Under the pieces are notes generated by a model, which was not told the origin of the DNA, did not search any database, and worked only from the letters and a program-made list of their open reading frames with translations. Shown one piece after another: positions 21,738 to 62,655 of a stretch of DNA of 64,000 bases; the stretch's first letter is position 1, and every line of letters begins with the position of its first letter. The position numbers and the translations under genes were made by a program. Source of the stretch: a bacterium (GTDB taxonomy: Bacteria; Desulfobacterota; DSWW01). Where the stretch lies: positions 6,832-70,831 of the forward strand of contig JANQFG010000265.1 in the NCBI GenBank assembly GCA_028277985.1, written 5' to 3'.

Positions 21738-21773
21738 GACGAGGACGAGGATGAGGACGACGACGAGGACGAT
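21738..21773. repeat. Codon-periodic (GAC/GAG/GAT)12 tract immediately after the TGA stop
   Basis: GACGAGGACGAGGATGAGGACGACGACGAGGACGAT is in frame with the preceding gene and would read DEDEDEDDDEDD. Confidence 0.6.
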
Positions 21774-21796
21774 AGCTTGGGAAAGGAAAGCAACAA

Positions 21797-39752: not shown

Positions 39753-39769
39753 CAAAGGATCGTCACGCA

Positions 39770-40960: not shown

Positions 40961-41005
40961 CCCGTTCATTTCACTGCTGTCTGAAGACCGGGAGTCCCTT
41001 TCCGC

Positions 41006-46739: not shown

Positions 46740-47792
46740 TCAATCCCGGGTGAACTCCTCCATCCAGTCGCGCGGGTACCCCGGAATACCGCGGCCCATC
46801 CGGCCGAAGAGGACTTTCGAGTATTTGTAGTAGGCCGGCATGGAGGTGAGCATCTTCAGTTTGACCATGGGCGGGAGCCGGGTGATCGCCTCGAAAACGC
46901 GATAGAGATACATATGGTTGCGGTTCATCCGGTCGAACAGGACCTGGGCGCCGTCCCGATCCCGGAGGGCCAGCGCAGAGACCTTGCCGGATGTAAGGGC
47001 CCCGACGATACCGTAGCCGCAGTAAGGGTCGTAGCTGCCCGAGGCTGACCCGGTCATGATGTACCTGTTTCCCGGCCCGAAGAAGAGACGAGTGCCGATC
47101 ATCGTTTCGCAGTAGAAGGGCTTCCAGCCCTCGATTTCAATGCCTGCCCGCTCTCGAAATTGCCGGTCGATGGTCTTCAAGGCCTTCTCCTCGATCCGTG
47201 TTCGCCGGCCGAAGACAAGCCCGTAGAGGATGCCGTTCATGGCCACCGCGTAGAAATAGTCGGGCGAGTAGGTATCCGCGAACTGCCAGTTGGCAGGCCC
47301 AAGCTTGGTGTCCATGACAAAAGCGTAGCCGTATCCGTCTATGAGTTTGTGTACGGAAAAATCCTCCACCGTACACATCGTGCCGGTCGCCACGATACTG
47401 CCGGGTGGAATGTCCTTCAGCCTGTTGACCGGATGACCGAACTCGAACGCAACCCCGTGATCGAGGCAGATCTTGTACAGAAACGTGTCGATGGCCGTCT
47501 CCCGATCGCCTCGCTCCACGCCGTAGTGGTTCAGGTTCGGGAAGAGCCGCTTGTCCCGGATCCACAGTTGGGTCTCCGACAAGAGCTGGAAACAGCTCGA
47601 GACGTCGATACCGATGAGGTCCGACGTATACTGGAGGTCGATTGGTGTTGCATGAAGGGACGGATGATATGCCGGCGATCCGCCTATGGCCTTCTCCTTC
47701 TCCAGGACGAGAACCTCATCCCCCTGTCGCGCCAGATCGATGGCAGCAACCATCCCGGAAAGGCCCGCACCCACAACGGTTCTCTTCGGCAT
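46740..47792 (-). CDS. NAD(P)/FAD-dependent oxidoreductase (Rossmann GxGxxG, subfamily unassigned)
   Basis: Start set at ATG 47792, 7 nt after GGAGGA. Reads MPKRTVVGAGLSGMVAAIDLARQGDEVLVLEKEKAIGGS. Confidence 0.65.
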   Translation of the reverse strand: MPKRTVVGAGLSGMVAAIDLARQGDEVLVLEKEKAIGGSPAYHPSLHATPIDLQYTSDLIGIDVSSCFQLLSETQLWIRDKRLFPNLNHYGVERGDRETAIDTFLYKICLDHGVAFEFGHPVNRLKDIPPGSIVATGTMCTVEDFSVHKLIDGYGYAFVMDTKLGPANWQFADTYSPDYFYAVAMNGILYGLVFGRRTRIEEKALKTIDRQFRERAGIEIEGWKPFYCETMIGTRLFFGPGNRYIMTGSASGSYDPYCGYGIVGALTSGKVSALALRDRDGAQVLFDRMNRNHMYLYRVFEAITRLPPMVKLKMLTSMPAYYKYSKVLFGRMGRGIPGYPRDWMEEFTRD

Positions 47793-47845
47793 AGCCATAT
47801 CCTCCACAGTGTCTAGGGTCTTCTGATCATCACGTCCTGGAACAC

Positions 47846-50770
47846 CTACACGTAATCATCGGTGACCGGAAGCACGTCCGGGTGCATCAGGTTGGCCGGA
47901 TCGAATGCCTTCTTCGTGTCCTTCAGAATCGTTAGATACTCCCCATGTTCGGCATACAGGGGGATGTGATACTCGCCGGCGCCGAACATGTTCCGGAAGA
48001 GAGAGCCTCCAAGCTCGAGCATGAGCTTCTGCGTCTTGTGCATCATGGTCGTAGCACGCTTCACATCCTCCGGGTTGCCCTGATCCCACCAGAAGTCGAC
48101 CTCGACGCCGCCCATGCGACCGTACGGCAGCGGTCCCTGGATGTCCGTGCCGGTCATGGCATGCTCCACGGAGACGGTCGGGTCCGAGGTCTTCCAGTAC
48201 TTCTGGACCAGCGCATCATATTTCACTGCAAACTCGGGGATCTTGTCCATCTTCATGTTGCACGCGGTCCACTGGAAGGCTCCCTTGTAGGTCCCGGCAA
48301 AGTTCTCTCTCACTCCGAGACTCATCTTGGTGGGGCCGGTGGTCTGCATTTCCGCCATCTCGTCTCCGAACATGCTACGATCGATGACCAGGAGACCGTA
48401 TTTCTGGACGATCTCGGTTACGATCTCCTTCTTGATCTCCAGTTCCTCGGCATCATACCCGCTGACAAGAGTCGCCAGAGGGTGTTGAGGGCTCATTCCG
48501 ATGACCCCCGGTACGGTGAGGCCTTCGAAGGCACTAACCATGGCCAGTGCAAAGAGCCCGGGATGTGCCTTGTAGATGAAGTCGGTGACGTTCTCCTGGG
48601 CAAGGTCGTGAATTGCTTCCAGGGTCTGGCAGAATGCATGATGAGAATCCGAGTCATAGTTGGCCGATACGACGTAATCCTCGAGGCCGTCTATCTTGTC
48701 GTTCTCCGGGTAGAGCTTTGCCGTCAACTCGGTGCAGACACCGAACATGCCGTCGGCGTTGAAGAACATCCCGAAAAGGTCGGGACCGGGCGTAAAATGC
48801 AGGGGAAGATTCCCTACATTCGGGATGGCGCTGGCGCCGGCCCGGTAGACTTCACCATTCGGCAGCACCCAGGTCATTGCGGAAGTCAATTCACAATTCG
48901 CGCCATACTTGAAGAGGGTCCCTGCGCCCCCCCGGGACACGTAGTTGGAGAGCAGAGAGACGCTCCCGAAGGTCAAGGGAAGAATCGGTTTCAGATGGAA
49001 CCCGTCCCTTGCCCTTCGCTCGACAGACTCCCACCATATGGAACGCATGCGGATGCCTGGATTCACGGATACGGTCATGGACTCTTCGTCGATCGACAGG
49101 AGGGAGTTGGCTCGCTTCAGATCGATCAGGATGCCGCCCTTGCGCGTGATCGCCAGGCCGCCATGATTGAACCCGGTGGACAGGGGTACGACCGGAACGC
49201 CATGTTCATAGGCGATCCGGATGACACGCTGCACCTCTTCGGTTGTCTCGGGGAGGACCGCGATGTTCGGACGTTCCCCGGAAAAGATGGTGAAGTCTCT
49301 GCCGTAGCTGCTCAAATCCACGGGGTTGTCGCTCACCCAGTTCGATCCAACCGCATCCCTGAGTTTCTCCTTTACGGCCTTCAAGTTGGATTCCGTCAGG
49401 CCGGTCTCGCCGCTCCCGACCCCGAGGGGCTGCCATTCCGGATCCCCGTCCTTGAGAATGCGGCCGGGATTCATGATGTTGTCCGGATCCAGGAACCCCT
49501 TGATCCGCTTGAGGAGTTTCAGGTGGTTCGGGATGCTCGTGTAGATCTTTCTTCCCAGTTCACCATGGGGGCGGTTGAAGAATGCCCCCAGGTCGGCCAG
49601 CTTTAGATTCAATGCGTCAACGGGTACGACCGGCTCCTGTCCGTCGGAGAACCAGTCGTACACGGCATGGACGCACCGGCCATGATCATAGGCGGTGTAG
49701 ATCTTGCCGGTCTGATCTTCAGGCAATCCGGCGGCGGACGCGGTCCTGGCTGTCTGGGCATCCAATGCCCCAAGTTTCGTAAACAGGGCATAGAACCCTG
49801 TGTGGCTCTCCCCGGCCTCCATCCAGGGTTGGTCGAGTTGTGGGGTCATGACGTCTACTAGATCTTTCTCAGGCCGGCACCTGTACGCCTGCAGATGCTT
49901 CTCGACCCTGTCCACGTTGTGCGCCACGTGCTTGGCCCTCCCCTCGAACCCGACGACCAGCACCCAGGGAGGATAGTCTTCTGCCGCACCTCGGAGCAGA
50001 TTCTTCAGGGACACATCGTTCATTCCCAGATACTCCCGGCCGAGCTCGGTGCGGGGCACCTCCTTCAACGCCCTGAGCAGCTCTTCCGAGTCGTCGAAAC
50101 CATATACGAGACAGGTTCGGACTTCACACACCGGCCACAGCAGGATCGTGGCGCGGGTCATGATGCCGAAGATATCATCGGACCCGAAGAACCAGTTCGA
50201 AAGGTGGGGGCCTCCGTCGCTCCTTCCATCCGACGGGTCTTTGGAAAAGCCGTGGGTCCCGGTCCTGTGAATGCGACCGTTCGGCATGATGAGCCGAAGA
50301 TTGCTCAGCGGATAATCCCAGAACTTGGACGCAGCCTTCGAGACCATGCGTGCCGTGTGGCATTCGGCAACCGAATCCGAGTTCGCTGCCAGAGGAGCGG
50401 CAGCTTTGACGCCCTGTCCCCGCAACTCAGCGTTCAGTTGCTCCCATGTGACGCCCCTCTGGACGTGGGCCATGAGGTTGCGGGCGTCGACCTGTTCGAT
50501 CCTGTTCATGCGGGAGAATTCGAGAAGAATCCCTTTCTTCTCCAGGTCTTCGGGAAGTAGATACCGATCGTTGGCGGTAATGATCGGCGTGGCGTTCTCA
50601 TGGGCCAGGTTCACGATCTGTTGGACCTGTTCATCGCAGGAAGGTGAGGCCACGACCATGTTGGGTGCCTGTTGTCCGGCTGCGAGGAGCTTCTTTGCAG
50701 CGAGAGGTCCCGACGATACGTTCTCTTGCCCAAGGATCGACCCTAGGCCTTCCAGGAGTGTCTGTTCCAT
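47846..50770 (-). CDS. Internally duplicated VAO/PCMH-type FAD-binding oxidoreductase (paralog 2, 974 aa)
   Basis: Start trimmed to MEQTLLEGLGSILGQENVSSG (G-rich SD). Collinear with paralogs 1 and 3 throughout. C-terminus reads HPDVLPVTDDYV. Confidence 0.85.
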   Translation of the reverse strand: MEQTLLEGLGSILGQENVSSGPLAAKKLLAAGQQAPNMVVASPSCDEQVQQIVNLAHENATPIITANDRYLLPEDLEKKGILLEFSRMNRIEQVDARNLMAHVQRGVTWEQLNAELRGQGVKAAAPLAANSDSVAECHTARMVSKAASKFWDYPLSNLRLIMPNGRIHRTGTHGFSKDPSDGRSDGGPHLSNWFFGSDDIFGIMTRATILLWPVCEVRTCLVYGFDDSEELLRALKEVPRTELGREYLGMNDVSLKNLLRGAAEDYPPWVLVVGFEGRAKHVAHNVDRVEKHLQAYRCRPEKDLVDVMTPQLDQPWMEAGESHTGFYALFTKLGALDAQTARTASAAGLPEDQTGKIYTAYDHGRCVHAVYDWFSDGQEPVVPVDALNLKLADLGAFFNRPHGELGRKIYTSIPNHLKLLKRIKGFLDPDNIMNPGRILKDGDPEWQPLGVGSGETGLTESNLKAVKEKLRDAVGSNWVSDNPVDLSSYGRDFTIFSGERPNIAVLPETTEEVQRVIRIAYEHGVPVVPLSTGFNHGGLAITRKGGILIDLKRANSLLSIDEESMTVSVNPGIRMRSIWWESVERRARDGFHLKPILPLTFGSVSLLSNYVSRGGAGTLFKYGANCELTSAMTWVLPNGEVYRAGASAIPNVGNLPLHFTPGPDLFGMFFNADGMFGVCTELTAKLYPENDKIDGLEDYVVSANYDSDSHHAFCQTLEAIHDLAQENVTDFIYKAHPGLFALAMVSAFEGLTVPGVIGMSPQHPLATLVSGYDAEELEIKKEIVTEIVQKYGLLVIDRSMFGDEMAEMQTTGPTKMSLGVRENFAGTYKGAFQWTACNMKMDKIPEFAVKYDALVQKYWKTSDPTVSVEHAMTGTDIQGPLPYGRMGGVEVDFWWDQGNPEDVKRATTMMHKTQKLMLELGGSLFRNMFGAGEYHIPLYAEHGEYLTILKDTKKAFDPANLMHPDVLPVTDDYV

Positions 50771-50887
50771 GATCCGTCCCCCCTTTTTGATGAGGTGATC
50801 AAGCGGCAATCATGGTAAGCATCCAGATCCATATCCGGTCGTCAGGAACTACGTTCCGTCCGCACATCTCAACACAGGATTCGTGTC

Positions 50888-53047
50888 CTAGCAAGAAGCA
50901 GACGGTCCGGGATGAATATTGACAGGAATCGCCGTCATCTGGGCAAGCCCGGTCACCGGATCGTATCGAACATCGTCGGGAATGAGGCGTTGCACATTGC
51001 TTCCCTTTTCCCGCACGTTCCGTTGGTCGGAAGGGTCTCCCCAGCCGAACGCGAGTCCGACCACATCCGGCTTCAGGTCCTCGGTCGATTCGACAACAGC
51101 CTCGACCGTGCCGAAGCCGCTGTCAACCACCACGATGTCATCGTCCTCGAGGCCGAGGGACTCCATGGCTGTCGGATGCATCAGTAAGGGGTTGAAAGAG
51201 CGCTTCTGCCGGAGAGACGGCAAATTCTGCCCCTGCGTGCAATACGCCTCTGGCATACGATAAGCGATCAAACGGAATCTGCATTCCTCTTCCGGCTCGT
51301 AGCCTCCGCCGGCGATCACCGGCTCGGCGCGGAGCACGCGCAGGTCTTTCAGAATCGCCGGGTGCCCGACCGCCATCTTCTTGTCTTCGTGCCCGATCAT
51401 GCTCGGGATGAGACCGCCGGCCTTGAGCTCTCGTTCGCCCCACACGTGGCCCCCCGGGTGCTGCTTGATTTCCCCCAGCGGTATACGCTTCATCGGCTGG
51501 AGAGCATCCATGAGTGCGTCGGCCGTCGGTCGGGAATCCATGCTCGTATTCGGAATATTCAGGTCGAGATCGAGCCGCCCGGCAAGACCCCAGAACACTT
51601 CCCAGTCCTCCAGAACACCTTCAGGGGGATCTACGAGCGGCGGTGAATACTGGCCGAAGGGGAAAGGGAAAGCGATATCGCCGAGCCTCGTCACATCCGG
51701 TCGCTCAAAAGGATGCCTCACCGGGAAGACATAGTCGGCAAACTTCGCCGTAGCAGACAGGAAGAGATCGTTGACCACGAGTAGATCAAGATCCTTCAAG
51801 GCTTGGACCGTGGACGCCTCATCCGGAAGTACAAGGGCGGGATTGCCGCCAAGCACGAAGAGGGCCCGGATCTTGCCCTCACCCGGGGTGAGCATCTCGT
51901 CCGTAAGGGTGTTACTCGGCAACTCGGCAAAACCACCCAGGACATTGAATATCCCCTTTACTTCCCTGATGCGGGATGTTTCGCCGCTTTCGAGGGCCAG
52001 GGGAAGCGGGCCCATACCATCCGGAAGCTCGAACCCGAGGGCGCCTTCGTTCCGGCCCATGCCTCCGGGGCGATCGAAGCGCCCGCACAGGGCGTTCAGG
52101 GTCATGACGAGGTGTACCGCGAGGTTCTGGTGACGCGCCATGTGCACTCCCTGACCGCTCAGAGCGCCGCCTTTCTTCGCAGCGGCAAACGCCCGAGCCG
52201 CTTCGAGAATCAGCTGCTCCGGCACTTGTGAACGTCTGGAAACATAGGGAAGGTCGAAGTCCTCGAGGGATGCACGGAGTTCGTTCACGCCGCCCACATT
52301 GTCGAGAACGTACTGCCTGTCGTAAAGCTCCTCTTCCAGGATGACCCTGACCATTCCGGCCAGGAGGGCAGGGTCCTCCCCCGGTTTCACCTGCAGGTGG
52401 ATATCCGCCAGCTTGGCGATGGAACTTCGCCTGGGATCGACGACGATGACCTTCATGCCTCTCTTGCGGCCGTCCGTCAGTCGTTTGAGGGGATTCGACT
52501 GGGGCATGATCAACTGTTTCGAATCGACCGGATTCGTGCCCACGAACATGGCAACATCGGCCCTGTGCACATCGAACAGGCTCACAGGGACGGGACCGCC
52601 GAACAAACGGAACAAGGCAACCGAATAAGCGGGCGAGTCGATGGTGAAGCAGGTATAGAAGCTCGGCGATCCGAGGGCCTCGATGAACTTGGAGGCGAAC
52701 CAGGGACCCGCGGCTGAGTTGCGATACCCCCCGCACCCGACGTATGCGGCAACGGATCGGGGGCCGTATTGGTCTACGATTTCTTCCAGTTTTTGAGCGA
52801 TCTCGTCCAGGGCCTGCTCAGAGGGGAGTTCGCTTCTGTGGCCGTCCGCGAGCTTCCGGGTAGACAGGAGTCGGTCCGGATGGTAGATGCGTTCAAGCTC
52901 CGATCTGCCTTTGATACACGTATAGCCTTCTGAAACGGGATTGTCCGGATCTCCGCGAACCGCCACGGCACGGTTGTCGTCTACGTCCACCTCGATTCCA
53001 CAGGAGGCGTGGCAGAACCGACAGAATGACTTCTTCGTTTCAACCAT
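50888..53047 (-). CDS. Cytoplasmic Mo/W-bis-pyranopterin (MopB superfamily) oxidoreductase, catalytic subunit only
   Basis: Start trimmed to MVETKKSFCRFCHASCGIEV...GYTCIKG, giving an N-terminal CxxCxxxC...C [4Fe-4S] motif. There is no twin-arginine signal. The C-terminus has a molybdopterin dinucleotide-binding barrel (DDDIVVVDSGFGTVEAVV). Confidence 0.8.
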   Translation of the reverse strand: MVETKKSFCRFCHASCGIEVDVDDNRAVAVRGDPDNPVSEGYTCIKGRSELERIYHPDRLLSTRKLADGHRSELPSEQALDEIAQKLEEIVDQYGPRSVAAYVGCGGYRNSAAGPWFASKFIEALGSPSFYTCFTIDSPAYSVALFRLFGGPVPVSLFDVHRADVAMFVGTNPVDSKQLIMPQSNPLKRLTDGRKRGMKVIVVDPRRSSIAKLADIHLQVKPGEDPALLAGMVRVILEEELYDRQYVLDNVGGVNELRASLEDFDLPYVSRRSQVPEQLILEAARAFAAAKKGGALSGQGVHMARHQNLAVHLVMTLNALCGRFDRPGGMGRNEGALGFELPDGMGPLPLALESGETSRIREVKGIFNVLGGFAELPSNTLTDEMLTPGEGKIRALFVLGGNPALVLPDEASTVQALKDLDLLVVNDLFLSATAKFADYVFPVRHPFERPDVTRLGDIAFPFPFGQYSPPLVDPPEGVLEDWEVFWGLAGRLDLDLNIPNTSMDSRPTADALMDALQPMKRIPLGEIKQHPGGHVWGERELKAGGLIPSMIGHEDKKMAVGHPAILKDLRVLRAEPVIAGGGYEPEEECRFRLIAYRMPEAYCTQGQNLPSLRQKRSFNPLLMHPTAMESLGLEDDDIVVVDSGFGTVEAVVESTEDLKPDVVGLAFGWGDPSDQRNVREKGSNVQRLIPDDVRYDPVTGLAQMTAIPVNIHPGPSASC

Positions 53048-53069
53048 ACAGAAGACCCCACTCTGAAGA

Positions 53070-55028
53070 TCATATCTCCCGACCGATCGCCGCGGCGTCT
53101 GCAGTGGCCTGGAGTGCAGTGGCAGGGTGCCGGGCATCGCCGATCACATGGACTTCGGGCACCTTGTCCTTGATCGCTGCAGAGAGGTTGTCGCCCGACT
53201 TCGCGCCTGTAGCCAGAATGATATACTCTGCACCCTGAACGGACACCTCCTGGCCGTCTTTCGTGTATACCACGCCCCCATCCACGATTTCCTTGGCTTT
53301 TGCCCCGAGCAGAATCTCCACTCGCTTTTCGTGCAGCCTCTCCATGAGCAGGTGCCTCGCCTCTGAGTTGCCGTCCAGAGCGAGCCTGTCCTGCATCTCC
53401 AGGATGGTCACGTGGGTGGCCGCCACCCCCATATTGTCCGTGGTTTGTGCCAGGAAGTCCGCCGTTTCGCAACCAACAAGGCCGCCCCCGATGATGACGA
53501 CGTTGCCGGCCAAAGAAGCCTCGTGGCCGGCCAGGACCTCCCAGGCCGTGACGACATTGTCCTTGTCGGTCCCCTCAAGACCTTCCGGAACCAGGGGTGT
53601 GGCCCCTGTGGCTACGACGAGCACATCCGGCTTGCGTTCGTCGATGAGTTCCGGGGTCACCTCCCTGCCCAGCTCCACCTGTACGCCCGCCTTCTCTGCC
53701 TGTGTGGATAGGTACTGGATGAGCTGGCTGATCTCCTGCATGAAGGGGGGTACGCTGGCGATGTTGATCTGACCGCCCAGCTTCTCTTCCTTCTCACAGA
53801 CCGTCACCTTGTGGCCCCTCAGGGCCGCCACCCGAGCTGTTTCGAGCCCGGCCGGGCCTCCGCCCACAACCAGGACCTGCTTAGGTTCGTCCGCGGGGAC
53901 GAGGGCCATCTCCTTCTCCCTTCCCGCCGCCGGATTCACGATGCAGGTGGCGAGTTGACCCTGTACAACCGTGCCGATACATCCGATGTTGCAGGCAATG
54001 CATGGGGCGATGTCATCCAGGTTACCTTGAGCCGCCTTGTTCGGCAGCTCAGGGTCTGCGTGGAGCGCGCGTCCCATGGACACCATATCCGTCTTTCCGG
54101 TTTCCAGAACGAACTCCGCCACCCGGGGGGTGTTGATCCTTCCTACGCAGATGACCGGTATGTCGACAACCTCTTTGATGCCATGGGCGAAGTCTGCATT
54201 GAGTGCGAGAGGGGTTCCCGAAGGGGCAACAACGGCCCAGAAGACGTTGGGGATGGTGCCGCCGGATACCTCGATGGCGTCTACACCTGCGTCGACGAGA
54301 ATGCGGGCGACGAACTGGCTCTCCTGGAGGGTTCGACCACCGGTCCGCCGCTCGTCACCGGCGATGCGAACGATGATGGGGAAGTCGGGTCCGACCTTGT
54401 CCCGGGCCGATTGGATGATGTCCAACAGGATCTTCGCTCTCCGTTCCAGGGAACCACCATAGGCGTCCGTTCGCTTGTTGAAGAAGGGGGACATGAAGGA
54501 CCCGACCAGGGCATAACCGTGCGCGGCATGGATCTCCACCGCGTCGACGCCGGCTTGCTGGGCCCGCCGGACCGCCTGGCCGAAGTCCTCTACAATGGCC
54601 TCGATTTCGCTGCTGCTGAGCTCTCTGGGCATACTTCGAAAGATGCCCCGGCTGGCAACGGGCGACGGGCCGAGAGGATCCGCCCCGGTCAGGACCTTCA
54701 TCGCCTCGGGCCCGGGGTCCATGAGTTGCGCCGCCAGCTTGCCGCCCTGGCGATGTACCGCATCCGCCAACTCCTTCCAGCTCGGGATCACGTCATCATC
54801 GAACAAAGCGAGCGGGACCACCCCGTACTTGCGTCCGGGATGCACGGCGCAAGCCTCGGTGATGATGAGACCCACACCACCCTTTGCGCGAGCTTCGTAG
54901 TAGTCGCGGTATCTCTCCGTGACGCTTCCGTCCATGGCACCATAGCCCATGTGCATGGGAGGCATGACGATTCTGTTTCGTACGACCATGCTTCCGATTT
55001 CGATGGGGGTGAACAAGTGTTTGAACAT
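53070..55028 (-). CDS. OYE-like FMN / [4Fe-4S] / FAD-NAD(P) oxidoreductase (FadH family), second copy
   Basis: N-terminus MFKHLFTPIEIGSMVVRNRIVMPPM. Cys cluster CIACNIGCIG...ATC. Then VLVVGGGPAGLETA and VVIIGGGLVGCETA. Confidence 0.85.
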   Translation of the reverse strand: MFKHLFTPIEIGSMVVRNRIVMPPMHMGYGAMDGSVTERYRDYYEARAKGGVGLIITEACAVHPGRKYGVVPLALFDDDVIPSWKELADAVHRQGGKLAAQLMDPGPEAMKVLTGADPLGPSPVASRGIFRSMPRELSSSEIEAIVEDFGQAVRRAQQAGVDAVEIHAAHGYALVGSFMSPFFNKRTDAYGGSLERRAKILLDIIQSARDKVGPDFPIIVRIAGDERRTGGRTLQESQFVARILVDAGVDAIEVSGGTIPNVFWAVVAPSGTPLALNADFAHGIKEVVDIPVICVGRINTPRVAEFVLETGKTDMVSMGRALHADPELPNKAAQGNLDDIAPCIACNIGCIGTVVQGQLATCIVNPAAGREKEMALVPADEPKQVLVVGGGPAGLETARVAALRGHKVTVCEKEEKLGGQINIASVPPFMQEISQLIQYLSTQAEKAGVQVELGREVTPELIDERKPDVLVVATGATPLVPEGLEGTDKDNVVTAWEVLAGHEASLAGNVVIIGGGLVGCETADFLAQTTDNMGVAATHVTILEMQDRLALDGNSEARHLLMERLHEKRVEILLGAKAKEIVDGGVVYTKDGQEVSVQGAEYIILATGAKSGDNLSAAIKDKVPEVHVIGDARHPATALQATADAAAIGREI

Positions 55029-55070
55029 GGTGGCTCCTTTCTGACGAAGAGTACCTCGACTGTGGGTCCT

Positions 55071-55892
55071 CTAGTCGCGACGAATCTTTCGGAAGGCCTT
55101 TATCGCTTCTCTGTTCATGAGGTCCATGGCGTTCGGATGGATGCGCTGGAGCCACCACATGAACCGGGCATGGAACGGGAACACCATGATTCCCTTGTTG
55201 CGTTCCACCCCTTTCAGGATCTCCCCTGCCGCCTTGGTTACGTCCATCCGTTTGAAGGGTACCTGAGCGTAGAACTCATCATTGTCCGCCTTGCGTATGG
55301 TGGCGGCATCGTAGAGGCCGGTCTGCACGAATCCCGGGCAGACTACGCTGACCTTGACTCCCAGGGCGGCTCCTTCGGCCCGCAGAGAGGTGGAGAGACC
55401 CACAATGGCGTGTTTGGTGGTGACATAGAGGCAGTTGGTCGGGATCGAGACGAGGCCCAGGACCGAGGCCGTGTTCACGATGTGACCGAAACCCTGTTCG
55501 ACCATGAGTGCGTAGGCAGCGACGGTACCATGGAGGGCCCCCAGAAGGTTGATACGGATAATGCGGTCCCAGTGTTCCTTTTCCATGTCTCGCGCCTCGC
55601 CCTGGATGGCGATGCCCGCGTTGTTGAACATGTAGTCCAGCCGTCCGTGTTCGGCCGCGGTCTGTTCGATCAACTTCTTGATATCCTCTTCCGAGGTCAC
55701 GTCCAGGTGCGTCGGCTGGGCCTTGCCCCCGTTTTCCAGAATCCCCTCGGCAACCTTGTTCGCCCCCTCAACGTCGATGTCGGACACGACGACCGTTGTT
55801 CCGCGTCTGCCCAGGGCCTGGGAGACGGCACGTCCGATACCTGACGATCCTCCCGTGACGATCGCTACTTTTCTTTCGAAGGGATTCTTCAT
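55071..55892 (-). CDS. Classical SDR-family oxidoreductase
   Basis: Contains KVAIVTGGSSGIGRA, NNAGI and YVTTKHAIVGLS (YxxxK). Confidence 0.85.
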   Translation of the reverse strand: MKNPFERKVAIVTGGSSGIGRAVSQALGRRGTTVVVSDIDVEGANKVAEGILENGGKAQPTHLDVTSEEDIKKLIEQTAAEHGRLDYMFNNAGIAIQGEARDMEKEHWDRIIRINLLGALHGTVAAYALMVEQGFGHIVNTASVLGLVSIPTNCLYVTTKHAIVGLSTSLRAEGAALGVKVSVVCPGFVQTGLYDAATIRKADNDEFYAQVPFKRMDVTKAAGEILKGVERNKGIMVFPFHARFMWWLQRIHPNAMDLMNREAIKAFRKIRRD

Positions 55893-56003
55893 CTCGAGTC
55901 ACTCCGCCCGACTTGGTTTGCCGGCACGTCCCTCAAGGGAATTGATCCGCCGAGCCATTTCTATCAAGAAACCGAGCAGGAAACGACCGGGATCCTAGCT
56001 TGT

Positions 56004-56148
56004 CCTTCGGTATTCGGAATTTATACTATTCGTAACATAGCAGGGGCGGCCTGTCAACAAAAACTATTCATTTTGCAATTTCTTTGATTAAGTAATATAT
56101 TGACATATATATATAAATACACGGTCTTGAGAATGACATGTCATTCTC
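56004..56148. promoter_or_regulatory. Regulatory module copy A: TATTCGGAA/TATTCGTAA boxes, ATATATTGACATATA box, perfect 20-bp palindrome GAGAATGACATGTCATTCTC
   Basis: Blocks lie at 56004-56038, 56094-56108 and 56129-56148. The same blocks, in the same order and with the same spacing, recur at 59533-59675. Confidence 0.7.
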
Positions 56149-56245
56149 ACGACCAACCGAACAGAGGGGGGCTCTGAGACCGAAAATCGGGTGAGATCGG
56201 TTGATTCCGCTCAGGGGCCTTGGATTCCCTTCCCGTGGACCTCTA

Positions 56246-56274
56246 TTGACAGACGGGACAGAAGGCTCTACAAA
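56246..56274 (+). promoter_or_regulatory. Sigma70-like promoter (TTGACA-17-TACAAA)
   Basis: TTGACA (56246-56251), a 17-nt spacer, then TACAAA (56269-56274), about 145 nt upstream of start 56418. Confidence 0.45.
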
Positions 56275-56417
56275 TAGAGCATAGGAAACTTGACCGATGG
56301 GACAATTTTTTCGTTGACCCCCCAATGAAACGGCATGCCGGGGCAAGGGGGTTGGCGAATCATTCGGGGTCCGAGGGTTTCAAATCCCCAATGAGCAGCC
56401 AGGAAGGAGTCGTCACC

Positions 56418-59339
56418 ATGGAAGGACAGATCTTGAACGAGCTGAAGGCGATCGTTGGAGAGGAGAACGTTTCAGAGGGGACCGCCGGAACCCAGCGATT
56501 CCTGCGCCCGGGCTGGGAAACGCCTTTCCTGGTGAGCGTGCGTCCGAAGAAAGACGAAGAAGTGCAAAAGATCGTGGATCTGGCTCGGGAGAATCGAACA
56601 CCGATCGTGACGACGAATGATCGTTATCTCCTTGAAGAAGACCTGGAGAAGGAAGGCATCTTCCTGGATTTTGAATGCATGAATGAGATCGAGGTCATAG
56701 ACGGCTACACGTTGATGGCCCACGTTCAAAGGGGTGTAACCTGGCATCAGCTCAATGAAGCTCTGAGGACCCATGGAATGAAAGCGGCCGCCCCTGTTGC
56801 GGCCAATTCCAATTCCGTGGCGGAATCGCATGCGGCCCGGGTCGTCGGCAAGGCGTCGTCAAAATACTGGGACTATCCTGCCACTAACCTGAGATTGGTG
56901 CTGGCCAATGGTCGGGTTCATCGGACCGGGACCCATGGGTTCAGCGACGAGTCGGACGGCAGAAACGAGGGGGGGCCGAACCTGTCCAACTGGTTCTTCG
57001 GCGCCGATGATGTTCTTGGAGTCATGACCAGGGCCTCCATCATGCTCTGGCCTGTACGTGAGAGTCGTACTTGCCTGGTGTACGGATTCGAAGATGTCGA
57101 TGAAATGCGAAGTGCCATGAAGAATGTTCCCCGCACGGAGCTGGGGGTAGAGTTTGTGGGCATGAACCGGGTCTCCATGGCGAACCTGCTGGGCGGAGAC
57201 CCCCAAGATTATCCTGCCTGGAGCCTGACGATCGGTTTTGACGGACGGGCCAAGCGAGTCGAACACAATACGGATCGAGTGGGCAAGCTCATGCAGAAGT
57301 TCGAGTGCCGGCAGGAAGACCGGCTCGTCGCGCCCATGACCGAGCAGCTGGATCTGCCCTGGATGGAAGCGAGTGACTACCACACGGGTTTCTATGCCCT
57401 CTTCTCCAAGATGAAGGCGCTTGACGCCGAGGTTGACAAGTCATCGGCTGCGGCGGGCCTTTCACCCGAGAAGGTAGGGAAGATCTATTCTTCTTTCGAC
57501 CACGGAAGAGCCGTGTACGCCGTTTATGACTGGTTTTCCGATGATCCGGCCCATGGTTCTGCCATGGACGCTATGAATATGTCCCTGGCAGATCTGGGCG
57601 CTTTCTTTGATCGTTCCCATGGAGAGCTCGGGCGTAAGATCTATACGAGCATTCCGAATCACTTGCCGGTGCTGAAACACATAAAGAAGATGCTCGATCC
57701 CGAAAATGTGATGAATCCGGGTCGCATCATGAAGGAGGAAGATCCGGAGTGGCAGCCCCTCGAGACCGGAAACGGCGAAATCGGATTGACGGTCTCCAAT
57801 ATAGAAGAGGTCAAGAACAAGCTGGCTGAATGTGTCGGCCAGGAGTGGGTGAGCAACAACCCGGTCGACCTGAGCGCCTACGGCCGGGATTTCACCATCT
57901 TCTCCGGTGAGCGACCGAACATTGCGGTTCTACCCCGGACCACCGAAGAGGTCCAGGCCGTTATCCGGACGGCTTATGAACATGGCATCCCGGTGGTTCC
58001 CCTGACTTCGGGATTCAATCATGGAGGCCTGGCCATTACCCGCAAGGGCGGCATCCTCATCGATCTCAAGCGTATGGCTGACCTGATGTCCTTTGACGAG
58101 GAGGCCATGTCCGTCTCGATAGGCCCTGGGATCCGGATGCGCTCGCTCTGGTGGGAATCGGTACGACGCAGAGCGTACGAAGATTTTCATTTGAAACCGA
58201 TTCTGCCGCTGACGCTGGGCAGTGTATCGCTCCTGTCGAACTATGTCTCCCGTGGAGGAGCCGGCTCCCTGTTCAAGTACGGGTTGAACCCCGAGTTGAC
58301 GGCCGGCATGACCTGGGTGCTGCCGAATGGCGAGGTGTTGAAGGTCGGTCCGAGCGCTGTGCCGAATGTGGGGAACCTTCCCCTCCACTTCACGCCGGGT
58401 CCGGATTTGTGCGGTATGTTCTTCAATGCGGACGGCATGTTGGGTGTTTGCACCGAGTTGACGGCAAAGCTCTATCCGGAGAAGGACAATGCCGCGGATT
58501 TCGAGGATTACGTGACTGCAGCCAACTATGATCCGGATTTTCATCATGCCTTCAGCCAGACAGTCAAGGCCATTCATGAAATCGGCCAGGAGAACATAAC
58601 CGACTTCATCTACAAGGCCCATCCCGGCCTCTTCGCCCTGGCAATGGCTGAAATGTTTGAAGAGGTGACCGTCTCGAGCGCTATCAACGTGGCCCCGCAA
58701 CATCCTGTCTCGTCGGTGGTCAGCGGGTATGATGAAGAAGAGCTGGAAATCAAGAAGGAGATCGTGGCCGAGATCGTCCAGAAATATGGGCTCATGGTGA
58801 TTGATCCCGCCATGTTCGGCGAAGGATTGGCGGAAGCGCAATCAACCGATACCACGAAGATGAGTCTCGGAATCAAGGACAACTATGTGGGAGCTTACAA
58901 GGGGGCGTTCCAGTGGACCGCCTGCAACCTGAGGATGGACAAGATTCCGGAATTCGCGCGGAGGTATGATCAGCTGGTGCAGAAATACTGGAAGACCTCT
59001 GATCCGAAGATTTCCGTGGAGCACGCCATGACCGGAACGGACATTCAGGGACCCCTTCCATTTGCACGGGCGGGAGGTATCGAGGTGGACTTCTGGTGGG
59101 ACCAGGGCAACCCGGAAGAGGTGAAAAGAGCAACCACCATGATGCACAAGACCCAGAAGCTCATGCTGGAATTCGGAGGGGCCCTCTTTCGAAACATGTT
59201 CGGCGCAGGTGAATACCATATGCCGCTCTGGGGCAAAGTAAGTGAGTACTACAATATCTTGAAGGACACGAGAAAGGCCTTTGATCCGGCCAACCTCATG
59301 CACCCGGACGTGTTGCCGTCTACGGACGACTATATCTAG
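56418..59339 (+). CDS. Internally duplicated VAO/PCMH-type FAD-binding oxidoreductase (paralog 3, 973 aa)
   Basis: ATG 56418 (SD AGGAAGGAG). Reads MEGQILNELKAIVGEENVSEG and is very similar to paralog 2 across long blocks. C-terminus reads HPDVLPSTDDYI. Confidence 0.85.
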   Translation: MEGQILNELKAIVGEENVSEGTAGTQRFLRPGWETPFLVSVRPKKDEEVQKIVDLARENRTPIVTTNDRYLLEEDLEKEGIFLDFECMNEIEVIDGYTLMAHVQRGVTWHQLNEALRTHGMKAAAPVAANSNSVAESHAARVVGKASSKYWDYPATNLRLVLANGRVHRTGTHGFSDESDGRNEGGPNLSNWFFGADDVLGVMTRASIMLWPVRESRTCLVYGFEDVDEMRSAMKNVPRTELGVEFVGMNRVSMANLLGGDPQDYPAWSLTIGFDGRAKRVEHNTDRVGKLMQKFECRQEDRLVAPMTEQLDLPWMEASDYHTGFYALFSKMKALDAEVDKSSAAAGLSPEKVGKIYSSFDHGRAVYAVYDWFSDDPAHGSAMDAMNMSLADLGAFFDRSHGELGRKIYTSIPNHLPVLKHIKKMLDPENVMNPGRIMKEEDPEWQPLETGNGEIGLTVSNIEEVKNKLAECVGQEWVSNNPVDLSAYGRDFTIFSGERPNIAVLPRTTEEVQAVIRTAYEHGIPVVPLTSGFNHGGLAITRKGGILIDLKRMADLMSFDEEAMSVSIGPGIRMRSLWWESVRRRAYEDFHLKPILPLTLGSVSLLSNYVSRGGAGSLFKYGLNPELTAGMTWVLPNGEVLKVGPSAVPNVGNLPLHFTPGPDLCGMFFNADGMLGVCTELTAKLYPEKDNAADFEDYVTAANYDPDFHHAFSQTVKAIHEIGQENITDFIYKAHPGLFALAMAEMFEEVTVSSAINVAPQHPVSSVVSGYDEEELEIKKEIVAEIVQKYGLMVIDPAMFGEGLAEAQSTDTTKMSLGIKDNYVGAYKGAFQWTACNLRMDKIPEFARRYDQLVQKYWKTSDPKISVEHAMTGTDIQGPLPFARAGGIEVDFWWDQGNPEEVKRATTMMHKTQKLMLEFGGALFRNMFGAGEYHMPLWGKVSEYYNILKDTRKAFDPANLMHPDVLPSTDDYI

Positions 59340-59532
59340 GGATCATCTTTGCGGTGGACGGCGTGCCTGAATACATCTGCTCGGTGCGTTCATCGTGACT
59401 CAGTGGTTTCACGGCCCCTGGGTCTCCAAAGACTCCCTGGCCGCGATTCGCTGAACCATCTCGAACAGAATCGGTGGACGGCAGGCTCTCGGTGCCGAAA
59501 AGCCATGGAAATCGAGCACCTACCTTCCTTTT

Positions 59533-59675
59533 CCTTCGGTATTCGGAAATTATAGGTTCCGTAACATGTGCGTGATCCCTGCCTACAGAATCCGTATATC
59601 TGATTCTATTGAGTTTAATTAATATATTGACATATAAAAGAAAATGGACCATCATGAGAATGACATGTCATTCTC
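59533..59675. promoter_or_regulatory. Regulatory module copy B, ending in the identical 20-bp palindrome (59656-59675)
   Basis: CCTTCGGTATTCGGAAATTATAGGTTCCGTAACAT at 59533-59567, AATATATTGACATATA around 59621-59636, and GAGAATGACATGTCATTCTC at 59656-59675, directly upstream of the TetR gene. Confidence 0.7.
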
Positions 59676-59699
59676 ATGAGCGTGAAAGGGATGGATAGG

Positions 59700-60335
59700 A
59701 TGAAGCCGGAATACAGACGAAAACAGATCATGGAGGTCGCAAAGAAGGTCTTTGCGGCGAACGGGTACCACAAGACGAATATCGAGATGATCTGCAAGAA
59801 GGCAGGGACCGGCAGGGGAACGATCTATCGTTATTTCAAGAACAAGGAAGCGATCTTCGCCGTAATCCTGGAAGAGAACCTCGAGGACATGAACCGGCAG
59901 ATGATCGATGGATATGAATTCAGATCGCTCCTCTTTGACACCAAGGAGGAACTGGTGAACGCCTATGTGGAGAGCCTGGAACGGCTCCTGACCTTCATAC
60001 TCGCAGATCGTGACTTCGCAAGGATCGCGCTGGATGTGTCATCCGGTGAAAGCAAACGATTTACACAGATCCGTCAAGAGTATGAACGGAAGAATATTTC
60101 CCTGATCAAGACGATGATGGACCAGTGGAAATGCAACGAGTTCGTGAGAGAGGACCTGGATACGGAGCTGGCGGCCATCCGGCTGAGTGGGGCCATGGAA
60201 AAGATCGCCAGGACCTATCTGTTCGAGAAGAAGAAGAAGTTTGACAAGCAGGAGATCCGGGCCCTGGCGGAGAAGAACGCGGAAATCGACCTTCACGGGA
60301 TGCTCGTGCCCGAGTGCCGGGCCTCCCACGGCTGA
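59700..60335 (+). CDS. TetR/AcrR-family transcriptional regulator
   Basis: Reads MKPEYRRKQIMEVAKKVFAANGYHKTNIEMICKKAGTGRGTIYRYFKNKEAIF, an HTH region. ATG 59676 abuts the palindrome, so I prefer ATG 59700, which lies 9 nt after GAAAGGG. Confidence 0.85.
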   Translation: MKPEYRRKQIMEVAKKVFAANGYHKTNIEMICKKAGTGRGTIYRYFKNKEAIFAVILEENLEDMNRQMIDGYEFRSLLFDTKEELVNAYVESLERLLTFILADRDFARIALDVSSGESKRFTQIRQEYERKNISLIKTMMDQWKCNEFVREDLDTELAAIRLSGAMEKIARTYLFEKKKKFDKQEIRALAEKNAEIDLHGMLVPECRASHG

Positions 60336-60368: not shown

Positions 60369-61283
60369 ATGAGTTCAGATCCTCTCGATCAGCGCCCAAG
60401 AAGAACGCAAGCCAAACCGCCTCCGCCCAGGATCAAGCAGGACCTATGTACCGGCTGCGGGCTCTGCTCCTCTGTTTGTGTGGTGATGGAAAAACGGAAC
60501 CGGAAGGTGGTCATCACGAGGCCCGAACTCTGCATCCGTTGTGGCCATTGTGGATCGATCTGTCCGTCGCGTGCGATCGTTGGGCCGTCGGTGGAGCCAA
60601 AGCGACTGACGGATCGGGCCCGCGCCGTCGCACCCTCTGCTGCTTCCCTTCAGTTTCTTCTTCGATCCCGAAGGTCTGTCCGGCGATACAAGCGGAAACC
60701 GATCAGCAGGAAGGATATGGACAAGATACTCGAGGCCGGCAGGTATACGCCCACGGGCACGAACACCCAGGGCATCGAGTACATAGTGATCACGGACCCG
60801 AACAAGATAGCGGAGCTGCGAGAGATGACCATGCCGGCCGTGATCCGGCTGTTCGGTATGGCGGTGCGCGTCTCCAAGATCCCGGTCCTGTCCGATTTTC
60901 TCCTGGGCGACCAAGCAGCGGACAACTTCCAGAAGATCTACACGCCTGCACTCAAGGCGATTGATGCATATACCCAGCGAGGTGACGACAGGCTCTTCTA
61001 TCACGCGCCGGCCATCATGCTGGTGCACGGTGAGAAGCTGGATGATATGGCCTTTTCCTGCTCGGCGGCCCTGTTCAGCTGCTACCTGATGGCCCATACG
61101 CTGGGTGTCGGGTGTTGCCTGAACGGGTTTCTGGTTCTGGCGGCCAACCGCGACCCGAAGGTGAAGAAATGGCTGGGTATACCCAGACAGCACAAGTGCC
61201 ACGCTGCCATGACCCTGGGTTACCAGGATGTGAAGTACAACCACCTGGTCAAGCGAAACCCGGCCAGGGTCAGATGGATATGA
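60369..61283 (+). CDS. Ferredoxin (2x[4Fe-4S]) fused to nitroreductase-family flavoprotein
   Basis: Contains CTGCGLCSSVCV...CIRCGHCGSICP, then LLRSRRSVRRYKRKPISRKDMDKILEAGRYTPTGTNTQG. Confidence 0.8.
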   Translation: MSSDPLDQRPRRTQAKPPPPRIKQDLCTGCGLCSSVCVVMEKRNRKVVITRPELCIRCGHCGSICPSRAIVGPSVEPKRLTDRARAVAPSAASLQFLLRSRRSVRRYKRKPISRKDMDKILEAGRYTPTGTNTQGIEYIVITDPNKIAELREMTMPAVIRLFGMAVRVSKIPVLSDFLLGDQAADNFQKIYTPALKAIDAYTQRGDDRLFYHAPAIMLVHGEKLDDMAFSCSAALFSCYLMAHTLGVGCCLNGFLVLAANRDPKVKKWLGIPRQHKCHAAMTLGYQDVKYNHLVKRNPARVRWI

Positions 61284-61317: not shown

Positions 61318-62655
61318 ATGGAAGAAGACAAAGATCTCGGGCGGGTGTTGGAGATTCACGAGGCACTGAGGGAAATATCCCGGCTCTGGGTCCAGGGCGA
61401 GGACTGGGAAGAGGCGGCGGCGGAGCGTCTGAGGGAGGAAGCCGTACTGCTGAACCACAGACGGTACTTCAGGAGCATTCCCGCCTATCGCGCGGTGGCG
61501 GAGGATGCGGGGTTGGGGGAGGATATTCCGGACACAGAGGTCATCAAGACCGATCTCATGTTCGCTACGGACATTTTCAAATCTTATGATCCGGTGCTCA
61601 TAGACAACGCAGAGTGGCAGGAGATGACAAGTTGGCTGAAAACCGTCTTCACCGGGGACCTGCCGGGCGATTATTCAGACGTGAAGAATCTCGAGGAATG
61701 GATTGAAAGGCTCACGGCAGCGGAACTCAATATCATGACCAGCAGCGGAACCTCGGGTCAGTACTCGTTCGTCCCACGGGACAACAACACCCGGATGGGC
61801 CTCATGATGAATTCCGCGCTCGTGTTTCAACCTTTTTTCGGGAAGGTTCTCGAGAACATATCCGAATACGACGCAGCGATCATGAATTTCAAGGGCGGTT
61901 CCGCCGGCGTCCAGGCTGCCAGCAACAGCATCGCCAACATCGTGCAGCACTCTTACTGTCTTTACGACATGGTCATGCCCGCTGACGCGGTGCGGATTCT
62001 TCAAAGAGGACCGAGAAACGACGAGGAAAGGACCTTCATCGACGAATTCGACCGGGTGATGACCAGGGAAAAGGATCAAAGGTACGAGGTGATGCTGGAC
62101 AACATCCGTGCCTCTCTGAAGAACGGGCAGAAGATCCTGATGCAGAGCGCCTGCTATCAGCTGAAGGAGCTCTGCAAGAAGGCGGTGGAGCAGGGGGGGC
62201 TGATCTTGCCTGAAGGAAGCATCCTCCTGTTTGGGGGAGGGTGGAAGACCTTCGAGGGCGAGAAGATGGAGAAGTCGGAGTTGATCGATTTGATCGAAGC
62301 GGCCTTCGGCTTGAAGGGAGAGAGTGCGGTCGAGGGCTACTCCATGATCGAGATGAACACGATGATGACCTGCTGCAGCCAGGCCAGATTTCACATCCCT
62401 CCGTTGATGGAGCCGATCGTTTTCGATGAAGATCTGACGCCCATAGACGGAACCGGTACGGCAGGGATATTCGGCTTTCTGGATCCCTTTGCCCTGTCCT
62501 ACCCGGGATTTCTCGTCTCCGGAGATGAAATCCGTCTCTGGCATGGGGACTGCCCGTGCGGGAGAAAGGGATATGCCATCGACGGGGAGATCCGGAGGGT
62601 GGCCGGGAAGGAAGTGAAAGGATGTGGAGGCATTATGGCTTCGGTGAAGGCATAG
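61318..62655 (+). CDS. LuxE/PaaK-like adenylate-forming acyl-protein/acyl-CoA synthetase
   Basis: Contains TSSGTSGQYSFVPRD, a P-loop-like AMP motif, and a C-terminal CPCGRKGYAIDGEIRRVAGKEVKGCG. It sits next to a LuxC-like gene. Confidence 0.55.
   Translation: MEEDKDLGRVLEIHEALREISRLWVQGEDWEEAAAERLREEAVLLNHRRYFRSIPAYRAVAEDAGLGEDIPDTEVIKTDLMFATDIFKSYDPVLIDNAEWQEMTSWLKTVFTGDLPGDYSDVKNLEEWIERLTAAELNIMTSSGTSGQYSFVPRDNNTRMGLMMNSALVFQPFFGKVLENISEYDAAIMNFKGGSAGVQAASNSIANIVQHSYCLYDMVMPADAVRILQRGPRNDEERTFIDEFDRVMTREKDQRYEVMLDNIRASLKNGQKILMQSACYQLKELCKKAVEQGGLILPEGSILLFGGGWKTFEGEKMEKSELIDLIEAAFGLKGESAVEGYSMIEMNTMMTCCSQARFHIPPLMEPIVFDEDLTPIDGTGTAGIFGFLDPFALSYPGFLVSGDEIRLWHGDCPCGRKGYAIDGEIRRVAGKEVKGCGGIMASVKA

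Follow-up and report, generated by a model that had tools for sequence, protein, structure and literature searches.

A FadR-box-like palindrome as predicted operator of a TetR-family gene, and a control region duplicated around a VAO gene, in a Desulfobacterota contig

Genes and repeated palindrome at the locus

A 64-kb stretch of bacterial DNA (contig JANQFG010000265.1 of assembly GCA_028277985.1, Desulfobacterota), referred to here as the window, carries a perfect 20-bp palindrome, GAGAATGACATGTCATTCTC, in two intergenic regions, one of which lies directly in front of a gene for a TetR-family repressor (Table 1). The first copy of the region (copy A) is located between a minus-strand operon, headed by an SDR gene and continuing with OYE/BaiCD-like, molybdopterin, double-VAO and FAD protein genes, and the third double-VAO gene of the window (VAO3) on the plus strand. 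The second (copy B) precedes the TetR gene, which opens an operon with Fer4-nitroreductase and LuxE-like genes. LuxC and Fer4 proteins extend the TetR operon in two orthologous loci (L001 and L002), and the SDR-type divergent partner is present in orthologous loci as well. The arrangement of the SDR/OYE/molybdopterin/VAO operon, VAO3 and TetR given in a preliminary description of the sequence was borne out by the annotation of the window.

The 20-mer occurs exactly twice in the window, at 56129-56148 and 59656-59675, base for base as first described, and the dyad is slightly longer than reported there, remaining perfect with its flanks over 22 bp in copy A (56128-56149) and 28 bp in copy B (59652-59679). 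No third copy of GAGAATGACATGTCATTCTC was found in the window at up to three mismatches, with 0 matches in 100 dinucleotide-preserving shuffles. Among the degenerate candidates that were rejected, the site at 58098 has five mismatches and lies inside VAO3, and the two-mismatch matches at 15626 and 17991 do not exceed chance.

Both palindromes begin exactly 23 nt after the end of a TTGACA box carried by an identical stretch termed block 2 (TAATATATTGACATATA; 56093-56109 and 59620-59636), and both are preceded at about 90 nt by a second identical stretch, block 1 (TCCTTCGGTATTCGGAA; 56003-56019 and 59532-59548), in agreement with the TTGACA spacing and the shared upstream block of the preliminary description. 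Local alignment of copy A with copy B (55999-56152 versus 59528-59679) scored 93, compared with 19.6 +/- 2.0 for shuffled sequences, the identity being concentrated in three islands with diverged spacers between them.

A promoter-operator footprint in front of TetR orthologues

The TetR protein belongs to an orthologue group known from metagenomes only, comprising 67 members at 47-86% identity, the next match being only 25% identical. DNA was recovered for about 14 non-redundant orthologous loci (designated by L numbers; TetR 58-86% identical), nearly all of which have, directly before TetR, TTGACA, a 17-nt A/T-rich spacer, a -10-like hexamer (CATAGT, CATAAT, CATATT, CACAGT or AATAGT) and then the palindrome in the form (G/T/A)AGAATGACATGTCATTCT(C/A/T). 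Across 14 loci, positions 2-17 of the 20-mer are invariant or deviate in one locus only, the neighbouring spacers being diverged, and the 23-nt distance between TTGACA and palindrome is unchanged. This pattern is a textbook phylogenetic footprint, as expected of a promoter with a putative operator placed over the expected transcription start. The palindrome also travels with the TetR orthologue into other contexts, namely next to an aldo-keto reductase gene (L006), next to a molybdopterin enzyme gene (L130) and downstream of TetR (L016).

Individual loci showed further variation. In L016, the gene for a 58%-identical TetR has no palindrome upstream, and a partial one, TAGAATGACATGTCAGTGCG (1102-1121), lies downstream of it, ahead of the next gene. 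An extra partial repeat (...ATGTCATTCTCAGAATGTCATTTTCAGTATTCTG) after the operator forms a third half-site-like element downstream in L009 (5942-5990) and L089 (4205-4255).

Occurrence of the palindrome core in a genome collection

The central 18-mer, AGAATGACATGTCATTCT, was searched for in a collection holding one genome per species (185,579 genomes, 596 Gb). In total, 42 exact sites were obtained, compared with about nine expected for a random palindromic 18-mer (596e9 / 4^18). Eighteen of them precede the predicted start of a TetR-family gene by 27-62 bp, and a further eight have such a gene within 0.5-1.9 kb; the TetR-linked sites come from Acidobacteria/Terriglobia, Nocardia, Desulfobacterota and Methylomirabilota. 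With the exception of a true orthologue in a metagenome-assembled genome (MAG) of Syntrophobacteria (L089), the site-adjacent TetR proteins are only 24-46% identical to that of the window over the aligned part, and they have the helix pattern G[TS][FI]Y.[YH]F.NK in common, which supports the suggestion that this helix type reads this box.

As a perfect palindrome in more than one copy, the element recalls a dispersed, non-regulatory repeat of the repetitive extragenic palindromic (REP) or miniature inverted-repeat transposable element (MITE) kind. Such a nature is extremely improbable, since each matching genome holds a single site and none holds two (the source genome apparently not being among the representatives of the collection), the window has only two copies in 64 kb even at three to five mismatches, and each orthologous locus has one copy at a fixed promoter position. 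The preliminary description had itself considered a widespread repeat scattered through coding regions; the sites found in the collection are single, often beside TetR genes, and not scattered in this way.

Relationship of the TetR protein to FadR

A TetR_N domain (PF00440) covers residues 10-54 of the window TetR (E = 7.2e-18). The protein as delimited in the preliminary description (211 aa) is not on record; a version called with 214 aa is, and only on a 9.7-kb Logan contig. The closest solved structures are those of Bacillus subtilis FadR/YsiA (3WHB, 1VI0; E = 7e-13 over residues 3-185) and Bacillus halodurans FadR (5GP9, 5GPA), and the best NCBIfam model is that of the Bacillus-type FadR/YsiA (NF053878; 67.5 bits). 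The recognition helix reads GTIYRYFKNKE in the window protein (GRGTIYRYFKNKEAI) and GTIYLYFKNKE in B. subtilis FadR (ADGTIYLYFKNKEDI), the base-contacting Gly and Tyr being retained (aligned segments GRGTIYRYFKNKE and ADGTIYLYFKNKE, respectively). An AlphaFold model of mediocre quality (pLDDT 71.8) retrieved generic TetR folds with Foldseek, FasR and FadR ranking at the top with TM scores of 0.55-0.63 that do not discriminate the ligand class.

The FadR box of B. subtilis is WTGAATGAMTANTCATTCAN, in which each monomer reads an ATGA(A/G)T hexamer through base contacts by Gly42 and Tyr45 of the recognition helix (PMC5397183). The window site agrees with this box at 12 of the 12 positions of the core GAATGA-N4-TCATTC and differs from it at the outer T/A positions and at two central bases of the 20-mer. 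As judged from helix and box, the DNA-reading part of the window TetR would work like that of FadR.

The conservation among orthologues, the FadR-box core and the association with TetR genes together indicate that the palindrome is very probably the TetR operator in an autoregulatory layout, as the preliminary description had proposed. Binding by some other regulator, for instance a global factor, with the TetR gene adjacent by coincidence, is highly improbable. Block 1 (TCGGTATTCGGA...CGTAACAT) does form a second conserved element that may be the site of another protein, but the palindrome follows the TetR orthologue into the contexts of L006, L130 and L016, 18 of the 42 exact sites elsewhere abut TetR genes encoding the same helix type, and the box defined by experiment for FadR, the nearest characterised TetR protein, has this same core.

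A control region duplicated around an inserted VAO gene

All sampled relatives, including L129 and L131 with TetR proteins 83-86% identical to that of the window, have a single intergenic region of about 280 bp between SDR and TetR, or between the molybdopterin enzyme and TetR in L130, in which the SDR and OYE genes are missing. Block 1, block 2 and the palindrome are all contained in this single region, with 124-128 bp between block 1 and the palindrome centre, and opposed TTGACA boxes are 41-44 bp apart in every locus. On the minus strand, block 1 follows the scheme TTGACA-17-TACGnA-TAATATAAAT-TCCGAATACCGA, from which we infer that it comprises the promoter core on the SDR side and the beginning of its leader, with a non-canonical -10. 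By eye, two other readings were considered and dropped: block 1 contains ATTC-G-GAAT, in the wrong arrangement for a second FadR-like site, and sigma-54, extracytoplasmic function (ECF) and archaeal TATA promoters were set aside as the closest genome-assigned orthologue is bacterial (Syntrophobacteria MAG).

Homology of copy A to the TetR leader ends abruptly right after the palindrome. The left part of copy B is too diverged to be aligned with copy A and matches the orthologues with z = 7.7-10.2 over shuffles; a 30-nt remnant of SDR coding sequence in copy B (59392-59422) is not significant alone (z <= 2). Since copy B is colinear with the whole ancestral region, the duplicated unit is the full intergenic region of about 255 bp. 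The duplication recognised in the preliminary description is thus real, the stand-alone promoter cassette of about 145 bp proposed there being replaced by the whole ancestral SDR-TetR region.

The gene between the two copies has its closest relatives elsewhere. VAO3 is 70% and 64% identical to its paralogs in the window (47846-50809 and 2002-4917, respectively) and 77-90% identical to orthologues in other metagenomes, which are located in unrelated contexts, by FUR/ZnuA genes, by thiolase and acyl-CoA dehydrogenase genes or by a DDE transposase gene. The palindrome is absent from all VAO3 orthologue loci fetched. The promoter and leader conservation between these loci and the window begins exactly at the TTGACA at 56246 (TTGACA-17-TAmAAn) and includes a second motif copy, TTGACCGATGGGACA, at 56290-56305. 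As this leader is shared with orthologues in unrelated contexts, the second promoter of the preliminary description (TTGACA-17-TACAAA, 56246-56274) is present as the native promoter brought along with the VAO3 cassette; the layered control read from it does not follow, the same promoter serving VAO3 orthologues without a palindrome. The segment between operator and cassette (56150-56245) showed no similarity to TetR leaders, upstream regions of VAO3 orthologues or any other fetched sequence.

The regulon of three transcription units suggested earlier is not upheld either, given that the operator lies at least 70 bp upstream of the SDR-side -35, the -10 of copy A reads GGTCTT and VAO3 has a promoter of its own about 100 nt downstream.

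Several observations concern the VAO3 leader and gene family. Direct repeats of TTGACmGAyGGGACA, present twice at a distance of 44 bp (56246-56260 and 56290-56304), are conserved in five unrelated contexts (Table 1), and the leader repeats could be two regulator sites rather than only a -35 box. The fold of the 285-nt leader is unremarkable (z = -1.5), and folding four orthologous leaders to a consensus gave next to no covariation (term -0.44). In L138, a VAO3 orthologue has its conserved leader truncated by a DDE transposase gene (1206-3092) immediately upstream, which fits a VAO3-type gene moving between contexts. The double-VAO paralogs of the window (1972-4917, 47846-50809 and 56418-59339) have about 975 aa, two FAD_binding_4 (VAO-type) domains each and 64-70% identity, a fourth being encoded elsewhere on the 156-kb contig (P0100); the family is without a named function.

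Decay and constraint in the two copies

Conservation was scored over 149 columns identical in at least seven of eight single-copy orthologues. Copy A departs from 35 of them, grouped in the SDR leader (55965-55998), the TetR-side -10 and the whole stretch after the palindrome; the -10 changes at 56123, 56124 and 56126 turned CATAGT into GGTCTT. Copy B deviates at 21, clustered in the SDR-side core (59549-59584) and including the -35, changed from TGTCAA to TGCCTA. The two copies thus look like a case of partial complementary decay. At columns variable among the orthologues, A and B are 50% identical and hence saturated, and over the conserved columns of the module each copy is 83-87% identical to the orthologues, most single-copy orthologues being 91-97% identical among themselves. 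With neutral columns saturated and conserved ones kept, both copies appear to be still constrained, including operator A and block 1 of copy B.

It is in this light that a relic has to be judged, in which copy A would be functionless and decaying, only copy B active, and the identity a product of short time or gene conversion. The lost -10 of copy A, the separate promoter of VAO3 downstream of operator A and the distance of operator A from the SDR-side -35, too great for steric repression, would all fit; yet all 22 palindrome bases and all 17 bases of block 2 have been kept in copy A where unconstrained columns are only 50% identical, and the 19 nt between block 2 and palindrome have diverged, arguing against a single conversion tract. 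A relic is therefore considered unlikely.

Different options could account for the constraint. Operator A may be kept by residual or alternative promoter activity, the candidate promoter TTGCAA-17-TATATT (56073-56101) putting it in the transcript path to VAO3; bound TetR may influence the SDR-side promoter; or a factor bound at block 1 may also serve the TetR-side promoter. A conserved SDR-leader motif of the orthologues, AAAACGAGCAnATACCTTC (55965-55998 versus 59495-59527), was lost in copy A before SDR and kept in copy B, where no gene lies on that strand, a pattern opposite to simple subfunctionalisation.

Lineage-specific extension of the dyad

Beyond the core, the dyad is extended by lineage-specific arms (ccatagt/actatgg, ccccact/agtgggg, tttttcctcata/tatgaggaaaaa and atatt/aatat), so that the perfect palindromes measure 44 bp in L013, 38 bp in L131, 36 bp in L007, 34 bp in L012 and 30 bp in L130. 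In the gap-free alignment of 14 sites, compensatory double changes were found in 11 of the 22 pairs, and the covariation score of 0.235 was reached by 0 of 500 shuffles (0.113 +/- 0.017), slid registers scoring 0.05-0.09.

Extension up to 44 bp and covariation above shuffles are what would be seen if the palindrome served mainly as a nucleic-acid structure, be it a 5' stem-loop of the RNA that controls mRNA stability or attenuation, or a hairpin or cruciform formed by the DNA. Templated correction of quasi-palindromes, however, can create covariation, and could do so here without function. The 18-bp core is kept as sequence rather than as pairing alone and recurs by unrelated TetR genes in other phyla; moreover, the -10 hexamer occupies the left covarying arm, so that a transcript from this promoter would lack this arm and an RNA hairpin is unlikely. 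No T-run follows the palindrome and no terminator-like call was made there. Rfam gave nothing at gathering thresholds, with only chance-level matches in 55850-56450, and no tRNA was found in the window. A mainly structural role is thus very unlikely, and two explanations remain for the covariation of the arms, a mutational one by templated quasi-palindrome correction and selection for hairpin or cruciform potential.

The VAO3 insertion has its left junction exactly at the palindrome edge (56149/56150), which, as a single case, is compatible with palindrome-stimulated breakage. It is quite unlikely that the extensions were selected for hairpin or cruciform extrusion, or turn the site into a fragile recombination hotspot, and that the palindrome in this way captured the VAO cassette and gave rise to the 255-bp duplication on either side of it; in that case, operators of this TetR class would act in nature as entry points at which arriving genes are drawn into a regulon.

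Proposed regulation and points against it

Taken together, the palindrome is probably the operator of the adjacent FadR/YsiA-like TetR, the intergenic region having been duplicated around an inserted VAO gene. The ancestor would have had one region of about 280 bp with two back-to-back promoters. Its rightward promoter would be followed directly by the palindrome, so that bound TetR, probably as a dimer of dimers by analogy with B. halodurans FadR, would cover the transcription start and repress the TetR/Fer4-nitroreductase/LuxE/LuxC/Fer4 operon until released by its effector, and the leftward promoter, including block 1, would drive the SDR/OYE/molybdopterin operon. The double-VAO gene, together with the promoter and leader belonging to it (56246-59339), would then have been inserted immediately after the palindrome, with duplication of the whole intergenic region to give one copy on each side of the insert. 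Copy B would still run the TetR operon and copy A the SDR operon; as the rightward -10 of copy A has decayed, operator A would control no more than residual or alternative transcription entering VAO3 from upstream.

Several observations weigh against this reading. The palindrome is perfect where the -10 position reads CCCACT (L012) or GGTCTT (copy A), and the covariation of the flanks is not predicted by a site read purely by protein. A simple loss of the unused half of each copy leaves the perfect operator in copy A and block 1 in copy B unexplained. The window TetR, with 67.5 bits and about 25% identity, does not reach the 200-bit cut-off of NF053878, and the residues anchoring coenzyme A (CoA) in B. 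subtilis FadR (Arg116, Asn120, Arg150, Arg153, Glu162 and Tyr174) correspond to T, Q, E, A, K and F of the window TetR, according to a low-identity pairwise alignment that makes this assignment tentative. The flanking operons, which encode SDR, OYE/BaiCD-like, molybdopterin, VAO, nitroreductase, LuxE/LuxC and ferredoxin-like proteins, did not contain a beta-oxidation regulon, and the nearby acyl-CoA dehydrogenase gene (44715-46559) has no palindrome site in front. With its score under the cut-off, its differing CoA-anchoring residues and neighbours that are not beta-oxidation genes, the window TetR falls outside the FadR equivalog.

The new element is the duplication of the intergenic region around VAO3, relatives being single-copy; a FadR-like TetR with a FadR-type box is a known kind of regulation, and current understanding is not overturned. 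The locus offers a natural example of a cassette insertion duplicating a bidirectional control region with partial complementary decay. For a TetR group that is uncharacterised and known from metagenomes only, a specific operator can now be predicted, along with a probable FadR-like binding mode, possibly as a dimer of dimers. The GAATGA-N4-TCATTC box, combined with the G(T/S)(I/F)YxYFxNK helix, appears to be in use far outside Bacillus. The TetR group heads an unusual anaerobic redox cluster with OYE/BaiCD-like, molybdopterin, double-VAO, LuxC/LuxE and multiple ferredoxin-like proteins, and the predicted operator would provide an experimental handle, as reporter or biosensor, on the effector and substrate of the pathway.

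Other features of the window

The coordinates of the locus are collected in Table 1. Further upstream, a dense run of flavoenzyme paralogs (12621-34808) includes three fusions of about 1000 aa combining amine-oxidase-like, Fer4_20 and Pyr_redox_2 parts (15677-24691), several amine-oxidase/phytoene-desaturase-like proteins, a second OYE/FAD enzyme (28857-30917) and a DUF362-Fer4 protein. Next come genes for an aldehyde:ferredoxin oxidoreductase (35304-37211) and an RND efflux pump (39734-44158), and the whole has the appearance of an extensive catabolic island of an anaerobe. Where an FAD monooxygenase-like gene (14349-15554, minus strand) diverges from the first giant flavoprotein gene, the near-palindrome TCGAATAATACATAATTCGA (15621-15646; arms TCGAAT/ATTCGA) lies just after a TACTATAAT box. 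It is possibly the operator of another regulator, its resemblance to a FadR-type box being at chance level.

Table 1. Coordinates of the features at the SDR-VAO3-TetR locus (window positions unless a locus is named)
Feature	Position	Strand	Basis or remark
FAD protein, last gene of divergent operon 46740-55892	46740-47807	-	Pfam, NCBIfam
Double-VAO paralog 2	47846-50809	-	Pfam, NCBIfam
Molybdopterin oxidoreductase	50888-53137	-	Pfam, NCBIfam
OYE/BaiCD-like flavoenzyme	53070-55028	-	Pfam, NCBIfam
SDR, first gene of divergent operon	55071-55892	-	Pfam, NCBIfam
Copy A of ancestral divergent control region, SDR start codon to palindrome end	55893-56149	none	Colinear with single intergenic region of L129, L131, L002, L007, L008, L009, L011, L012
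Block 1, copy A, TCCTTCGGTATTCGGAATTTATA..CGTAACAT; putative SDR-side promoter core and early leader; candidate -10 TACGAA 56029-56034 (plus-strand coordinates)	56003-56038	-	Kept in all SDR-type orthologues
Candidate SDR-operon -35 TTGACA (plus-strand reading TGTCAA)	56052-56057	-	Invariant in orthologues
Block 2, copy A, TAATATATTGACATATA; putative TetR-side -35 TTGACA 56100-56105	56093-56109	+	Same in copy B; TTGACA invariant in orthologues
Decayed ancestral -10, GGTCTT in copy A	56123-56128	+	Orthologues: CATAGT, CATAAT, CATATT or CACAGT
Predicted operator A, 22-bp perfect palindrome TGAGAATGACATGTCATTCTCA	56128-56149	none	FadR-box-like, core GAATGA-N4-TCATTC
Junction filler between duplicated region and VAO3 cassette	56150-56245	+	No similar sequence among fetched loci
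VAO3 native promoter and leader: TTGACA 56246-56251, 17 nt, TACAAA 56269-56274; repeat TTGACCGATGGGACAA 56290-56305; ribosome-binding site AGGAAGGAG	56246-56417	+	Conservation with VAO3 orthologue upstream regions
Repeat-bearing VAO3 leaders	Window 56246-56305; L132 7827-7906; L134 ~7823-7900; L136 32-110; L137 2324-2385
VAO3, 973 aa, two FAD_binding_4 (VAO-type) domains, inserted gene	56418-59339	+	Pfam
Copy B of ancestral control region, position equivalent to SDR start/ribosome-binding site to TetR start codon	59423-59699	none	Colinear with L007, L011, L002, L129
Block 1, copy B; neighbouring SDR-side -35 decayed to TGCCTA 59580-59585	59532-59567	-	No gene divergent from block; deviations 59549, 59555, 59557, 59568, 59571, 59582, 59584
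Predicted TetR promoter, copy B: -35 TTGACA 59627-59632, 17-nt spacer, -10 CATCAT 59650-59655	59620-59655	+	Promoter scan 10/12 matches; orthologues same geometry
Predicted operator B, 28-bp perfect palindrome TCATGAGAATGACATGTCATTCTCATGA	59652-59679	none	Abuts -10; ends 20 nt before TetR start codon
TetR-family repressor (FadR/YsiA-like), 211 aa, first gene of its operon	59700-60335	+	Pfam TetR_N; start fixed by orthologue alignment
Fer4-nitroreductase, TetR operon	60369-61283	+
LuxE-like, TetR operon	61318-62655	+

Comparison with known systems

Duplication-degeneration-complementation describes the subfunctionalisation of duplicated regulatory DNA. The window resembles it in that the rightward -10 has gone from copy A and the leftward -35 from copy B, and differs in that the loss is incomplete, each copy keeping conserved blocks of its unused side. 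Classical TetR-family autorepression, as in TetR/tetA and QacR/qacA, is relieved by ligands that release the repressor. A palindromic operator over the start of the regulator's own unit, in a divergent intergenic region, is likewise predicted here. However, the window operator overlaps only the regulator-side promoter, and the divergent SDR promoter is at least 70 bp away, so that the two sides are not obviously co-repressed.

The closest known system is the acyl-CoA-responsive Bacillus-type FadR (YsiA; B. halodurans DNA complex 5GPC; PMC5397183), which is the top structure and NCBIfam match, has a near-identical helix and the same operator core, and also has a site at its own promoter. Each half-site of the window consists of two overlapping hexamers resembling ATGA(A/G)T (GAGAAT and ATGACA), compatible with a dimer of dimers as in FadR. 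In contrast, the box has other outer and central bases in the window (AGAATGACATGTCATTCT) than in FadR (TGAATGAMTANTCATTCA), and the window host, judging from L089, is probably a Thermodesulfobacteriota/Syntrophobacteria-like anaerobe.

TetR loci of Acidobacteria, Nocardia and Desulfobacterota share the same central 18-mer upstream of the TetR gene. In Acidobacteria/Terriglobia MAGs (L091, L100, L104, L110, L114, L115, L118 and L122), it is part of palindromes of about 42 bp, cTTGACAagaatAGAATGACATGTCATTCTattctTGTCAAg, beside TetR genes encoding the helix SSTGSFYFYFRNKED; unlike the window site, these have TTGACA on both arms and a different promoter geometry, looking like symmetric bidirectional promoter-operators. 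In Nocardia (L098, L108, L112, L113, L117 and L121), a conserved TetR gene with the helix IGHGTFYRYFANKRDI is preceded by the identical 18-mer at 55-58 bp, suggesting that an operator of this kind could be characterised in cultured organisms.

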